A DNA stretch of 30,265 nt from Thaumarchaeota archaeon UBA160 (GTDB taxonomy: Archaea > Thermoproteota > Nitrososphaeria > Conexivisphaerales > UBA164), in NCBI GenBank assembly GCA_002506605.1, contig DAXX01000067.1, positions 1 to 30,265 of the forward strand. The letters run 5' to 3'. The position numbers and the translations under genes are program-made. Shown here piece after piece: positions 2,694 through 7,460 of the stretch. The notes under the pieces are model-generated. The model was not told where the DNA came from. It saw only the letters and a list, made by a program, of their open reading frames with translations, and did not search any database. How positions within the stretch are numbered: the first letter of the stretch is position 1; each line of letters begins with the position of its first letter.

Positions 2694-3389
2694 TTAAAGT
2701 AAAGTAAAATACATTTTTCTCCAAACAAAAACGTCAAGATGTAGCTGGTCTATACCAGATTTTATAGAAATATTTTTCCAAGCTAGAAGCGCACAGCTTA
2801 TATTGTTTTGTTCGCTTATCAAACCTAAACTTTTTGAAACTTTTAATACCCTGTTATCTAGAGGTATTGGTATTTTTTGAGGAACATTTGCATGGATGCC
2901 TTCTGTGATTAAACCGTAATGAAACATTTTACATGCAAAAGAAATTGTCTTCTGATATGAAACCCCATAAATTTTTATAAGATTTTCATATAATTTGCCT
3001 AAATTTTGTTTATAATCTTTAATTTGCGATGAAAATATAACGTCCTTATTTTTTAAAGCACGTAGCCTCTTGATTTTAGCATTTCTAGCTAGCTCTTTGT
3101 TTTCAATCAAAAAAGCTTCAACGCTTTTATAAGGATCTAAAGGGTCTATGTCAAGACTTGACAAGCGATTCCAATATGTTTCTCCACTAGTCTTAAGACG
3201 ATAAGCTACCAAGCTAGACGCAACTATAAACCTATAAAAGCATAATTCATCGCACTTTGATTTTATCTTTTTTAAAGCTTCTAGCTGAGGATCTCCCAGT
3301 TCAAGCCAATAATAGTAGTCTAGGTCAATAGATTTAAAAAAATTAGAAATGAGATCTACTTTTTCGTTATCGATCTTACATTTTTCCAT
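2694..3389 (-). CDS. Archaeal 8-oxoguanine N-glycosylase/DNA lyase (AGOG family)
   Basis: DPQLEAL, LVAYRL...GETYW, KIKRL, QKTISFACKM (catalytic Lys), IPIPLDNRV (catalytic Asp), HLDVFVW. ATG at 3389 preferred over the 3428 ORF start because it directly follows the upstream stop. Confidence 0.85.
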   Translation of the reverse strand: MEKCKIDNEKVDLISNFFKSIDLDYYYWLELGDPQLEALKKIKSKCDELCFYRFIVASSLVAYRLKTSGETYWNRLSSLDIDPLDPYKSVEAFLIENKELARNAKIKRLRALKNKDVIFSSQIKDYKQNLGKLYENLIKIYGVSYQKTISFACKMFHYGLITEGIHANVPQKIPIPLDNRVLKVSKSLGLISEQNNISCALLAWKNISIKSGIDQLHLDVFVWRKMYFTLL

Positions 3390-3390
3390 T

Positions 3391-4905
3391 TCAATATGTT
3401 GGGTAAACTTTAAGCAGCATACCTTCAACCAGTATAGGCAATTTCCTTTCGGCTATGCTTATAGCGTCTGATAATTTAGAACTTCTTTCAGCATATATTT
3501 CTAAAAGAGGATCATTTTTGTTTACCTTATATCCTTGTTTTTGATAAAGGACGACGCCTGCGCCCTTGTCGATCGGCGCGCCTGCAGCTCTTGAAATTTC
3601 AACTATAGCTTCATTGTCTACAGCTGTTACGTACCCATCACTCTCAGCTTTGATGACATGCCTATAACTACCAACTGGCAGATCGTCAGGTTTGATATTG
3701 GGATTGCCGCCTTGAGCTTCAATTATTTCTTTCATTTTTTGATACGTTTTTCCACTCAATATCATGTCCATGGCAGCTTCATATCCTTGTCCTTTTTGAA
3801 CGATCCCTGTTGCCTCTAAAAGTATGCCTGCAAGAGATGCTGATTTTGAAAGCAAACTCATACTTGCTTGAGATGGATTCATCAAAGCTGAAAGGGCTTC
3901 CTTAGCTTCAAGTGCAGGCCCAACAGCCCTCCCGATAGGTTGCCCTCCATATGTTATTCCTGATCTAACATTTGCTCCTAGACTTTTTCCAAGCTCATAG
4001 AAATCTTTTGCAAGCTTTTCTGCTTCAGCGATATCATTCAGTTTAGTTCCCTTTCCAACAGGTAAATCAAGAGCTATCACTTTTGCTCCTACCGCAAGCT
4101 TCTTTGCGAGCACGCTTGCCATCATAAGGCCCCTAGGATTTATCCTTAATGGGTTTTCGATTTTTATTAAATGATCGTCAGCAGGCGCAAGGTTCAGCGT
4201 TCCTCCCCAAACTATACAGCCATGAGTTTTAGTTACTATTGACTTTATCTCGTTCAGGCTGAATTTAACGTTTGCAAGAACCGACATAGTATCGGCTGTA
4301 CCGGAAGGACTCGTTATTGCGCTGCTGCTGGTCTTTGGAATATAAAGGTCGGTGAGCGCTATAGTAGGCACAATAAGCAAAGTCACCTTATTGCCCGGCA
4401 CTCCACCTATAGAATGTTTGTCGACCGTAAAACCTGGAAGCTCTAATTTTTCTCCGCTTTCAACCATGGCTAACGTAAGGTTCTTTATTTCTTCGAGATC
4501 AAGCCCTACATAGTTTATTGCAAATATAAATTCTGCAATTTCTAGATCACTTAACTCGTTATCCACGATATCTTTTATTATTTCTCTTATTTCGTTTTCA
4601 GTTAACCTTTCTCCTTTTACTTTTTTTCTTATGTATTCAACTGCGAACGGCGTTTGCTCATATTGAACATTAATTACATCTCCGTCCCTTATTTCAAGAG
4701 TTTCTGAAAGATCTTCATATATACCGATTATACCTTGCGGCACAAGGCTCTTAGTTGTTTCTACTATGCACGTTGAAGATTTTGAATTTGATGTAACCTT
4801 TACTCTATCATTAAGTTCTATACCAATCTTTTGAGCATCTTCTTCGTTGATTATTACTGACCTTTTTCCAGCTTTAACATCTATAATCTTTGCTTTAAGT
4901 TCCAC
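3391..4905 (-). CDS. AMP phosphorylase (archaeal thymidine-phosphorylase family, pentose bisphosphate pathway)
   Basis: N-terminal extension typical of AMP phosphorylases, DKHSIGGVPGNK, PKTSSSAITSPSGTAD, WGGTLNLAPADD, GAPIDKGAG. GTG at 4905 is the likely start (ORF track gives TTG 4917). Confidence 0.92.
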   Translation of the reverse strand: MELKAKIIDVKAGKRSVIINEEDAQKIGIELNDRVKVTSNSKSSTCIVETTKSLVPQGIIGIYEDLSETLEIRDGDVINVQYEQTPFAVEYIRKKVKGERLTENEIREIIKDIVDNELSDLEIAEFIFAINYVGLDLEEIKNLTLAMVESGEKLELPGFTVDKHSIGGVPGNKVTLLIVPTIALTDLYIPKTSSSAITSPSGTADTMSVLANVKFSLNEIKSIVTKTHGCIVWGGTLNLAPADDHLIKIENPLRINPRGLMMASVLAKKLAVGAKVIALDLPVGKGTKLNDIAEAEKLAKDFYELGKSLGANVRSGITYGGQPIGRAVGPALEAKEALSALMNPSQASMSLLSKSASLAGILLEATGIVQKGQGYEAAMDMILSGKTYQKMKEIIEAQGGNPNIKPDDLPVGSYRHVIKAESDGYVTAVDNEAIVEISRAAGAPIDKGAGVVLYQKQGYKVNKNDPLLEIYAERSSKLSDAISIAERKLPILVEGMLLKVYPTY

Positions 4906-4930
4906 GTTAAAAAGCAATACCAGGTATACT

Positions 4931-4944
4931 ATTAAAGCTTTAAT
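4931..4944. promoter_or_regulatory. Perfect 14-bp palindrome ATTAAAGCTTTAAT, candidate bidirectional TATA element or operator
   Basis: Seen directly. Centre is about 30 nt from ATG 4968 and about 32 nt from GTG 4905, giving a TTTAAT box on each strand. Confidence 0.5.
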
Positions 4945-4967: not shown

Positions 4968-7094
4968 ATGCTGTTTGAGGATGCTATAAAAATAAGAAAT
5001 GAAACAGGCCTAGACCCTACAAACAATATTGAATTAAAGGAAAGATTTTATGCAATTAGTGAGCCTAAATTTGAAAAAAATGATTTTTTAAATTATAATG
5101 AGTTAAGGGGGTATCTCATTAAGCAAGTGAGCGATTCATACGGTGGATATCCTTCTACTTATCATGAGCCGATTAAAGGAAACAAGATAAGCTCAATATT
5201 TTCAGATTATTTTGGACAGTGGGAATTCGATTTTTTAGATTTTATTGAAAGCATAAAGAATCCGAAAATAAATCCTCCTGAAGGTAAAGGTTATATAACG
5301 TTTAATGTAACGAACAGGTTCATATTAAGGTTTGTAGAAAGCAAAGCGCCAATAGCGGTTGCAAGCGTCAAAATTGCTGAGTTCATGAACCTTAAAATGA
5401 ACTCTTTGCCAATAAAGATAGGAAATTCTTTTTATAGACTTTATTTTTCTGAAGAAGTTAAACCGCCTCTGTTTTTTGATGGCAATAACGCTTCATATGA
5501 ACAAAAAGGCAAGTTAACAAGCTTTGGCGAACTCCTTCTTCCGATAACAGCATGCCAAGAAATTTTTATGCACAAATGTGAAGCTGCTGTAAAAAGCTTT
5601 GATGACGCTTTAGAAAAAGCAAGAATGACGGGGCAGTTGGATCCATACTTTTCTTTTCCTAGGTCTATTTTTAAACTAAAGCTAATCGACGATAAAAGAA
5701 TACAGCTAAGTCAATCATCGCTTCAGGCACTAATTGACTCTTATGTACCGTTTGTAAAAGAAAAAGATAGCATAAGACTTACAGAGCAAGACGAAAGATC
5801 TAAAGCGATTCTTTATATATTAAAGAATGGTCTAGGTGGGATAAATATATTTGAACCTTATAGGGGCACGATCAAACTGTTCATCAGAGTTGACAAAGAT
5901 ATTCATGAACTAAACAAATATGATGGCCTTCTAGCTCCAAGAGAATTAAGTCATAATTCAGGTTTTAAGTTAAGATTCTGTGAAAAATGTAATAGAACCA
6001 CACCTTTCAGAAAGTGCGAACGCTGTGGCAGTAAGACCGTCGAAATATATTACTGTAAAAAGTGTGAAATTTATACAAAAGGAGAAACATGTCCGCAATG
6101 CGGTTCAAGAACAATAGAGCCTCATGTTGCTGAAATTAATATAAAGGAAAGTTTGAACTACGCTGCAGGCCGGCTTAAAATAACTAATTTAAGGGAGCCA
6201 AAACTTCCTAAAGCCCTACTTAGCGAACCTGAATTACCTGATAAATTATTGTTAAGGCAGAAAAACTCATTGCTTACAAGCCAGTTTGGAATGATTTTGA
6301 CTCCCATAAAATTGCAGGCAGGAAACGTAAACGCAAACGAAATTGAAATGCCAGCAAAATTTGAACCCCTTATAAAAGAAATCAAATCTTTCATCAATGA
6401 AGAGCTTGCCATCGTTTACGAAAAAAATTTAAATTATGAGGAAATAGGATCGCACCTTATTTTATTTAACAAACCTCTTAACGCCGGCATTGAGCTTAAA
6501 ATAAAGGGTTACAGACAGGGGAATGAAGCTATAGTGAATCCAAATGTGATAGAATTTGCTGATTTAGGTGTTCTTGACAACCAAGCTTATTTTGCTTTAA
6601 GCGAGGACGTTGCATTAAATTGCATCTGCCAAAAAACTAAAGGAATAATCATCTACAAATCTTCAGAAAACGCCGATTTGATTCCAATTAAACTGGACTA
6701 TATGAGAACGCCTATATATCAACAAAGCTTGAGTGAAATCATAAAAGGTATAATAAATTTGCTTTCTATTATATATCCGGATTCTGCAAACGAAATAGAT
6801 TCAGTTAATTTGATAAAAAAAGTTGAGAATTTATTCGTTAGGCAGTCATACATTTGTGAAAAATGTGGCAAGAGATTAAGGGTGCCTCCTTTAAACATGA
6901 GATGTCCAAGGTGCGGCTCAAAACTCGCTCCAAGATTTACATCTTCTGACTTGAACAATTTTATTCTGCAATTGAATCAGCTTTCAGAAAATTTTCAGGG
7001 TTCTCAGTACAAAGAAATTATAGACATTTATGTTAATAGTATAAAAAGCATCTTTAGGGCATCAAGCCAGATGAGTCTTGGTGATTTTTGGTAA
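4968..7094 (+). CDS. polC: Degenerate DNA polymerase D large subunit (DP2) homologue, predicted catalytically inactive
   Basis: Colinear with DP2: N-terminal AIKIRNETGLDPTNNIE (cf. AKKARSQGKDPSTDVE); CEKC..CERC and CKKC..CPQC; EPELPDKLLLRQKN (cf. EPLEKGLLRAKN); SHLILFNKPLNAGI (cf. GHLVIGLAPHTSAGI); RQSYICEKCGKRLRVPPLNMRCPRCG (cf. [26 protein letters not shown]); terminal QMSLGDFW. Catalytic RRNCDGDED is absent and the protein is 708 aa versus about 1100+ aa. Confidence 0.85.
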   Translation: MLFEDAIKIRNETGLDPTNNIELKERFYAISEPKFEKNDFLNYNELRGYLIKQVSDSYGGYPSTYHEPIKGNKISSIFSDYFGQWEFDFLDFIESIKNPKINPPEGKGYITFNVTNRFILRFVESKAPIAVASVKIAEFMNLKMNSLPIKIGNSFYRLYFSEEVKPPLFFDGNNASYEQKGKLTSFGELLLPITACQEIFMHKCEAAVKSFDDALEKARMTGQLDPYFSFPRSIFKLKLIDDKRIQLSQSSLQALIDSYVPFVKEKDSIRLTEQDERSKAILYILKNGLGGINIFEPYRGTIKLFIRVDKDIHELNKYDGLLAPRELSHNSGFKLRFCEKCNRTTPFRKCERCGSKTVEIYYCKKCEIYTKGETCPQCGSRTIEPHVAEINIKESLNYAAGRLKITNLREPKLPKALLSEPELPDKLLLRQKNSLLTSQFGMILTPIKLQAGNVNANEIEMPAKFEPLIKEIKSFINEELAIVYEKNLNYEEIGSHLILFNKPLNAGIELKIKGYRQGNEAIVNPNVIEFADLGVLDNQAYFALSEDVALNCICQKTKGIIIYKSSENADLIPIKLDYMRTPIYQQSLSEIIKGIINLLSIIYPDSANEIDSVNLIKKVENLFVRQSYICEKCGKRLRVPPLNMRCPRCGSKLAPRFTSSDLNNFILQLNQLSENFQGSQYKEIIDIYVNSIKSIFRASSQMSLGDFW

Positions 7095-7460
7095 TTACAC
7101 AACGAAAATATCTACGGTTATTTTTTGTGACTTTATGTACGGTTTCCCGTTTCTGTTTATTATGCTAGCCTTACCATGGGCTGAGATTACATAAACCTTT
7201 TTTTCCCCATAATATGCGTCCATGTTAATAATAAAATTTCCTGTTTTCATATCAAGGGTTTTTTCTTTCTGGACCAATCTAATGCTGTCTTTCTTTATGT
7301 CATCATTACCGATCAAATTGAGAAGCTCCTTTTTTAATCTGTTTTCAAATGATGTGCTTTTTTTTGATTTAAAGAATCCATAAATCTCTTGTTCTATCGA
7401 GATAACTTTGAGATCCTTCACTTTTTCAGTTCTAAGATCCTTATTTTCTATATTTTCCAT
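7095..7460 (-). CDS. Hypothetical protein (121 aa)
   Basis: ATG-started ORF filling the gap between DP2 and metE, with AT-rich upstream promoter-like sequence. No family recognised. Confidence 0.65.
   Translation of the reverse strand: MENIENKDLRTEKVKDLKVISIEQEIYGFFKSKKSTSFENRLKKELLNLIGNDDIKKDSIRLVQKEKTLDMKTGNFIINMDAYYGEKKVYVISAHGKASIINRNGKPYIKSQKITVDIFVV

Follow-up and report, generated by a model that had tools for sequence, protein, structure and literature searches.

Why would an archaeon retain, as an intact gene, a large subunit of its DNA polymerase that no longer carries the residues required for catalysis? This question is raised by an open reading frame (ORF) at positions 4968-7094 of a 30,265-nucleotide stretch of DNA from Thaumarchaeota archaeon UBA160 (contig DAXX01000067.1 of assembly GCA_002506605.1), which we refer to as the window. 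In most archaea other than the Crenarchaeota, PolD, whose large subunit is DP2, is considered the principal or essential replicase. The window corresponds to contig C33 of an assembly of 855 kb that comprises 72 contigs, is 68% complete and comes from a hot-spring metagenome, and the named relatives of its source organism are labelled as Conexivisphaerales, Nitrososphaerales, Nitrososphaeria or Thaumarchaeota metagenome-assembled genomes. According to the original prediction, made from the DNA letters alone, the ORF encodes a selected, non-catalytic DP2, either an intermediate in PolD loss or an exapted replisome component beside a PolB replicase, with Nitrosocaldus cited as reported to lack DP2; the window organism is itself not a Nitrosocaldus. 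Our analysis suggests that the protein is a pseudo-polymerase DP2, which probably forms a heterodimer with an equally inactive DP1 homologue and is kept as a non-catalytic adaptor of the replisome.

We confirmed an uninterrupted ORF of 708 amino acids (aa) plus stop at 4968..7094 on the + strand, which begins with ATG and runs without an internal stop. Hidden Markov model (HMM) searches gave a significant match to DP2, although far below the family cut-offs. The NCBIfam DP2 profile NF003103 matched with an E value of 1.4e-23 and 82.5 bits (cut-off 1269), and TIGR00354 reached 45.2 bits (cut-off 702). Only two stretches were aligned by HMM, the zinc fingers at aa 333-438 and, at aa 622-707, the C-terminal zinc finger with its bundle, and a phmmer search of the PDB found the DP2 proteins of Pyrococcus abyssi and Thermococcus kodakarensis across the same two stretches. 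Pfam returned only zinc-ribbon matches and PolC_DP2_central at 15.8 bits, below its cut-off of 24.3, with zero matches to PolC_DP2_cat and PolC_DP2_N in the ORF; Pfam alone would therefore have missed the DP2 family. A search of 1.84 billion representative proteins returned only five relatives with an E value below 1e-30, indicating that the DP2-like family is narrow.

The structural comparison was far more decisive. An AlphaFold2 model built from a 31-sequence alignment (A1) had a mean predicted local distance difference test (pLDDT) of 87.9 and a predicted template modelling score (pTM) of 0.85. Its strong Foldseek matches in the PDB were solely DP2 chains, with E values from 8e-26 (9f2a_B) to 5e-15. 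VIA-align placed 593 residues of the model (1-705) on residues 17-1189 of the P. abyssi DP2 chain with a Z score of 21.2. Two double-psi beta-barrels were present, colinear with those of solved DP2 structures (AlphaFold2, Foldseek, VIA-align), and the colinearity from start to end that had been read from the letters was thus borne out. Using VIA-align, we also found that aa 439-567 alone resemble the active-site double-psi beta-barrel of the largest subunits of RNA polymerases (e.g., Rpb1 343-511, Z about 6) and that aa 604-697 resemble the C-terminal domain of Pol epsilon (5vbn_B, Z 6.9); the C-terminal domain of Pol alpha was also among the structural matches. It is the structural match that led us to accept the DP2 identity end to end, and the model identifies the ORF as a true, extremely diverged homologue of the PolD large subunit.

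We mapped the parts of the protein on a canonical 1124-aa thaumarchaeal DP2 (Pfam N-terminal domain 21-292, central domain 303-667, catalytic domain 702-998). The resulting features are listed with the evidence for each.

4968..7094, + strand: miniaturized, apparently catalytically dead DP2 homologue (P0001), whole ORF (profile search, AlphaFold2 model, Foldseek, VIA-align)
4968..5285, + strand: N-terminal domain remnant, aa 1-106, about 270 aa in canonical DP2 (map on the canonical 1124-aa DP2)
5286..5963, + strand: reduced central region with the first double-psi beta-barrel remnant, aa 107-332 (aa 107-326 matching canonical 316-609; AlphaFold2 strands; VIA alignment)
5964..6122, + strand: double zinc ribbon, aa 333-385, with C338, C341, C350, C353, C363, C366, C375 and C378 (Cys invariant in 31 sequences; DP2 profile 628-737)
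6225..6263, + strand: helix with E422, K426 and R430, invariant in dead and canonical DP2 (alignment)
6282..6668, + strand: second double-psi beta-barrel remnant, the former catalytic barrel, aa 439-567 (VIA-align to the RNA polymerase barrel and DP2)
6528..6623, + strand: former catalytic loop, aa 521-552, with ADL-GVLDNQA in place of KRR-DCDGDxD (bridged alignments)
6723..7058, + strand: C-terminal helical bundle and third zinc finger (C630, C633, C646, C649), putative DP1-docking domain (DP2 profile 1008-1096; 5vbn_B, Z 6.9; predicted interface 606-697)
7068..7091, + strand: terminal peptide QMSLGDFW, aa 701-708, resembling a PCNA-interacting protein (PIP) box (sequence reading, family conservation)

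About 400 residues have been lost relative to canonical DP2. Of the ~270 aa of the N-terminal domain, ~100 remain; the central domain has lost ~100 aa, and the catalytic domain is without canonical residues 750-785 and 900-976 (~100 aa), while the last ~140 aa are present at full length. The family has 71 invariant residues, among them all 12 Cys of the three Cys4 zinc fingers; these Cys, together with E422, K426, R430, G441 and D547, are invariant in all 31 sequences. The PIP-like tail is modelled with low pLDDT, predicting disorder; across the family, S703 and F707 do not vary and Q701 varies hardly at all.

To define the former catalytic site, we gathered homologues from 30 related genomes and bridged the MAFFT alignments with intermediate relatives. 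The pattern ..HxAKRRD(C/A)DGDxD..LLxDxLLNF is found in three canonical full-length DP2s, all from other families of the class; through the intermediates, their KRR-DCDGDxD segment aligned unambiguously to ADL-GVLDNQA in the ORF. The three catalytic Asp positions are occupied by L, N and A, the KRR by ADL, and the Asp triad is absent. The flanking landmarks are kept, namely the P523 equivalent and the LLxD..LN block (D547..N551), in which D547 is invariant and N551 is found in at least 90% of the 31 sequences. The bridged alignments reproduced the initial observation that the RR and DGD residues are gone and the HP/NP and D..LN register is preserved. The 32-aa peptide quoted with that observation (AIVNPNV...DVALNC) is indeed encoded, although at 6528-6623, one codon before the start of 6531 first given. 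The sole Asp of the former loop, D535, is not conserved outside the genus, being N or F in sister genera, and the family alignment contained no conserved substitute acidic residue inside the loop. The acidic residues that are conserved in the family (E422, E458, E479, E520, D547 and others) all lie outside it, and two of them, E422 and D547, also never vary in canonical DP2. These replacements support the view that the protein is catalytically dead as a polymerase.

The search for a partner subunit revealed one DP1 homologue in the genome, a protein of 425 aa encoded on contig C54 (L004:880-2154, + strand) and unlinked to the DP2-like gene. Two congeners, G003 and G006, carry the pair on one contig, ~19-21 kb apart. 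The DP1 homologue scored 57.8 bits with Pfam DNA_pol_E_B; with NF003118, whose cut-off is 445 bits, it reached 117. All five phosphoesterase motifs of the Mre11 type are replaced (DxH by DLM, GD by GN, GNHD by GHFD, H by N, and GHxH by GGGK), whereas the N-terminal domain is retained, including the GFQ.HPD block. Judged by these motifs, the DP1 homologue is a dead 3'-5' exonuclease subunit. We modelled it in complex with aa 580-708 of the DP2-like protein and obtained an interaction prediction score from aligned errors (ipSAE) of 0.88, compared to 0.00 for the best control, with an interface at aa 606-697, in the zinc-finger bundle. Of 80 solved complexes, 58 attained that mark, as did 2 of 110 mismatched pairs. 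The prediction supports binding of DP1 by the C-terminal domain of the DP2-like protein.

Both genes have been retained together, and the DP2-like gene is under purifying selection. We estimated the ratio of nonsynonymous to synonymous substitution rates (dN/dS) by the Nei-Gojobori method, using only pairs with dS of 0.2-0.4, as distant pairs were saturated (dS above 1.3 or undefined). Over the whole gene, the ratio was 0.10-0.15; it fell to 0.01-0.05 for the C-terminal domain, and the former catalytic region gave 0.10-0.19. Intact orthologues were present in all eight congeners (705-724 aa, 48-81% identity), and the versions in sister genera were intact as well (685-722 aa, 28-32% identity). 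Constraint is strongest in the PIP tail and the DP1-docking bundle. Genes for DP1 and the DP2-like protein co-occur, and neither was found in families f2 and f6. No second or canonical DP2 was found in the 68%-complete genome itself or in congeners that are 91-92% complete. The prediction of a selected, non-catalytic DP2 is thus supported by the intact orthologues and by ratios well below 1, and the search for other PolD genes that had been proposed with it turned up no second DP2 and a DP1 that is itself inactivated.

If PolD is inactive, another enzyme would have to replicate the chromosome. We detected a PolB of 846-848 aa in seven of the eight congeners. It is a PolB1, matching Sulfolobus solfataricus Dpo1 (1s5j) with an E value of 5e-225 and scoring above the NF004417 cut-off, with ExoI and motifs A and C intact and without a zinc-finger C-terminal domain. 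The intact PolB1 of the congeners fits the proposal of a PolB replicase beside a non-catalytic DP2. The second PolB of the congeners is a PolB2-like protein of 600 aa. In the copy from G007 (L073:882-2681), no exonuclease domain was detectable, the motif A Asp and the motif C sequence YGDVDS are kept, and the protein may be active.

Among 151 sampled genomes of the class, the ~700-aa forms were confined to families f1 and f3 of the order, and DP2 was found in none of the five genomes of family f11. Across the order, DP2 forms a graded series, from full-length proteins with a damaged motif down to the ~700-aa forms.

Canonical DP2 (other families of the class): about 1124-1139 aa; PolC_DP2_cat 448 bits; DxDGDxD
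g11 (family f4): full length; TIGR00354 750-838 bits, PolC_DP2_cat 292 bits; DCGGDxD in two species
g8 (f4): full length; TIGR00354 438 bits, PolC_DP2_cat 225 bits; Asp triad absent
g7 (f4): full length; TIGR00354 314 bits; Asp triad absent
g10 (f4): full length; TIGR00354 305 bits; Asp triad absent
g2 (family f1): 833 aa; TIGR00354 66 bits, PolC_DP2_cat 75 bits; DGD motif absent
Family f3: about 700 aa; TIGR00354 about 23-30 bits or none, PolC_DP2_cat 32 bits; 8-aa deletion at the loop
g1 (the window's genus): about 708 aa; TIGR00354 about 30 bits, PolC_DP2_cat none; GVLDNQA
g3 (f1): about 715-722 aa; TIGR00354 none; DGD motif absent

The g11 proteins (L049, L076) still score above the TIGR00354 cut-off, and in these two species the first catalytic Asp is replaced by Gly. 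In another g11 locus (L077, G034:C4:348900-352800), DP2 is divided between frames of 998 and 191 aa that meet immediately ahead of the C-terminal domain, reflecting either a mistake in the assembly or a genuine split by which the DP1-docking domain is released. DP1 is eroded in parallel: motif III (GNHD) is lost in every order member examined, and the remaining motifs erode progressively. The DP1 proteins of family f3 (L063-L068, e.g., L063:865-2034) measure 380-400 aa in g6, and the g9 member is 429 aa long with a short N-terminal stub. In these proteins, the N-terminal (GINS-binding) domain is mostly or wholly gone, motifs I, II, IV and V are kept, and GNHD is changed to GECD. By these motifs, the f3 DP1 follows an erosion path different from that in the window's genus.

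According to our model, a vertically inherited DP2, now about 400 residues shorter and stripped of its catalytic Asp triad, has kept the two-barrel scaffold, the three zinc fingers, the DP1-docking bundle and the terminal PIP box. With its equally dead DP1, it would form a non-catalytic heterodimer in the replisome, where DNA synthesis itself would be carried out by PolB1. In canonical PolD, the C-terminal PIP motif of DP2 binds primase and then PCNA (PMC8096248). In T. kodakarensis, the N-terminal domain of DP1 binds Gins51 and PolD stimulates the Cdc45-MCM-GINS (CMG) helicase, with no GINS binding by PolB (PMC9023282). By analogy, the DP2-like tail could link the adaptor to PCNA and primase, and the N-terminal domain of DP1 could link it to CMG via GINS. 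We infer this scaffold role and its partners from canonical PolD, and we regard a replisome adaptor as the probable function of the pair. We put forward more tentatively an extended version, in which the dead heterodimer would be an essential, purely structural hub with CMG on one side and PolB1, primase and PCNA on the other, as an unfused archaeal counterpart of the non-catalytic Pol epsilon/Dpb2 module. The erosion series, which passes from a full-length DP2 short of one Asp through full-length dead forms and an 830-aa form to forms of about 700 aa, would in that case trace the steps from replicase to scaffold after PolB took over synthesis.

Several observations weigh against the adaptor. 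As the f3 relatives encode DP1 without the N-terminal domain, GINS docking is no universal reason for retention across the order, and the retained role may differ within it. The DP2-like gene sits outside any replication operon, next to genes for an AMP phosphorylase-like protein, AGOG and MetE. The score of the DP1-DP2 complex may partly reflect model memory of solved PolD complexes. No RNA runs with the gene were found, its sequence matching only DNA runs of one hot-spring study. Finally, the search of the window's own genome for PolB came back empty, which is uninformative at 68% completeness, and for PolB we depend on the congeners.

Could the pair be active, or on its way out? A DNA polymerase that catalyzes through an unconventional site made of other acidic residues (e.g., D535, E520, D547, E458) would account for a two-barrel fold kept at high confidence, for the conservation of D547, E458 and E479, and for the failure to find a PolB in the incomplete genome. 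Yet the Asp positions hold L, N and A, the KRR is gone, D535 varies beyond the genus, and the catalytic domain is short of about 100 residues. Judged by the alignments, the conserved acidic residues appear to be those shared with canonical DP2, at non-triad positions, the partner exonuclease is dead as well, and the congeners carry an intact PolB1; we consider residual polymerase activity very improbable. Even harder to sustain is a functionless relic en route to loss, as in the Nitrosocaldales, which is largely refuted. The graded erosion within the order is what such decay would produce, families f2, f6 and f11 gave no DP2-like match (nor did f2 and f6 a DP1), and Nitrosocaldus has lost both subunits (PMC5817080, PMC7603488). 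However, simple decay is rejected by the dN/dS of 0.10-0.15, with 0.01-0.05 in the tail, and a relic would not be expected to show intact ORFs in eight of eight congeners and three sister genera at 28-81% identity, 71 family-invariant residues including 12 Cys, or a fold predicted at high confidence.

Two further explanations grant the pair a function. The dead DP1-DP2 pair might have been exapted away from the fork, for instance to DNA repair, a transcription-related process or RNA binding through its zinc ribbons and the surfaces of its barrels. In favor are the similarity of these ribbons to Nop10 and RpoP, a gene for the AGOG 8-oxoguanine glycosylase nearby on the opposite strand, and the f3 relatives, which have dispensed with the GINS-binding domain of DP1. 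Against this, the likeness of the zinc ribbons is generic to all DP2 (PMC7544198), we saw no conserved neighborhood pointing to another pathway, and the best-conserved parts are the replisome-docking modules, i.e., the DP1-binding C-terminal domain and the PIP tail; we judge an off-fork role unlikely. The other explanation is a sub-case of the adaptor, in which the two proteins serve as accessory subunits of PolB1, replacing the crenarchaeal PBP1/PBP2 and tethering PolB1 to PCNA or CMG, an arrangement that would directly parallel a eukaryotic PolB and its B-subunit, only unfused. PolB1 co-occurs with the dead pair in the congeners, and PBP1/PBP2 are reportedly missing from ammonia-oxidizing thaumarchaea (PMC5817080). 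Moreover, eukaryotic and some archaeal PolBs bind DP1 homologues by a DP2-derived C-terminal domain (PMC7544198, PMC12680538). The congener PolB1 has no such zinc-finger domain, though, and Kazlauskas et al. likewise note no PolB with one in the group (PMC7544198), which makes this specific arrangement doubtful. A non-catalytic replisome adaptor therefore remains our preferred explanation.

The surroundings of the gene are ordinary. A 50-nt divergent gap separates the DP2-like ORF from the AMP phosphorylase-like gene, and it contains one candidate promoter element.

4926..4939, + strand: A/T-rich TATA-box-like stretch, candidate promoter, ~30-40 nt 5' of the ATG (sequence reading only)

A promoter and terminator scan gave counts at background; the scan is of bacterial type and not meaningful for an archaeon. 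The AGOG-type 8-oxoguanine DNA glycosylase gene occupies 2694-3428 on the - strand, two genes upstream of the DP2-like ORF. An ORF of 121 aa at 7095-7460 (- strand), with no Pfam match, abuts the DP2-like stop codon on the opposite strand. The other neighbors in the window encode ordinary archaeal housekeeping proteins (PheRS alpha, a SIS-domain protein, AGOG glycosylase, MetE, Nep1 and a thermosome subunit). In public annotation, these DP2-like proteins appear as "hypothetical protein" (NCBI) or, inconsistently, as "Nop10" or "DNA polymerase II large subunit" (JGI). Such misleading labels will lead genome surveys to score these organisms as without PolD or with an active PolD.

This kind of protein has been recorded before. 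Kazlauskas, Krupovic and Venclovas (2020; PMC7544198, section 20, Supp. Figs S15 and S16) showed DP1 NAY82623 and DP2 NAY82641 as inactive and reported that the group encodes an inactivated DP1, without an active DP2 or a PolB with the C-terminal domain. The proteins of our congener G006 are exactly those sequences, NAY82641.1 (DP2-like) and NAY82623.1 (DP1), and the ORF in the window is a full-length orthologue from the same genus, 70% identical to NAY82641.1. According to the original prediction, such a form is not known to have been characterized; its existence was already on record, and, with respect to function, our literature search found no study of the dead DP2 form. The search also returned no literature on Conexivisphaera and PolD. 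The 2020 account comprised three genomes, one paragraph and two supplementary alignments, and its authors called conclusions premature. To that briefly published form, the present analysis adds selection estimates, a structural model, a predicted DP1-DP2 interface, conservation of the PIP tail, co-occurrence with PolB1 and the erosion series across the order. The cultured relative Conexivisphaera calida is expected to carry the ~700-aa dead form; if so, biochemistry and proteomics would be feasible.

How does the protein compare to known systems? With canonical DP2 (P. abyssi 6hms, 6t8h, 8ppt) it shares a colinear fold, two barrels, three zinc fingers, the C-terminal bundle and the terminal PIP motif. 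It differs in its length of 708 aa, compared to 1100-1270 aa, in the absence of the Asp triad and KRR, and in the cut N-terminal and catalytic domains. A conserved but dead homologue of an archaeal replicative polymerase is not without precedent, as an inactivated archaeal PolB family was reportedly described by Rogozin et al. in 2008; its fold is unrelated, being of the palm-domain and not the two-barrel type. Like the Nitrosocaldales, the organisms studied here are thermophilic Nitrososphaeria presumably relying on PolB rather than PolD. The Nitrosocaldales have lost both PolD genes (Daebeler 2018, Abby 2018, Sheridan 2020; PMC5817080, PMC7603488), whereas the window's lineage keeps both, inactive and under selection. 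The lack of DP2 in family f11 is reminiscent of that published loss.

Parallels can also be drawn with eukaryotes. That both PolD subunits stay under selection with both active sites gone implies a role of PolD in the replisome that is non-catalytic and separable from synthesis, and eukaryotes likewise kept a dead DP1, as the B-subunits, and the DP2 C-terminal domain. As in Pol alpha, delta and epsilon, a dead DP1 homologue is paired with a zinc-finger helical bundle of the DP2 type, the binding being predicted in our case. The non-catalytic C-terminal half of Pol epsilon offers a similar example of a once-catalytic module kept as a scaffold, the role that we propose here by analogy. Unlike in eukaryotic PolBs, where the docking domain is fused to the polymerase, in the window's lineage this domain still resides on the dead two-barrel core.

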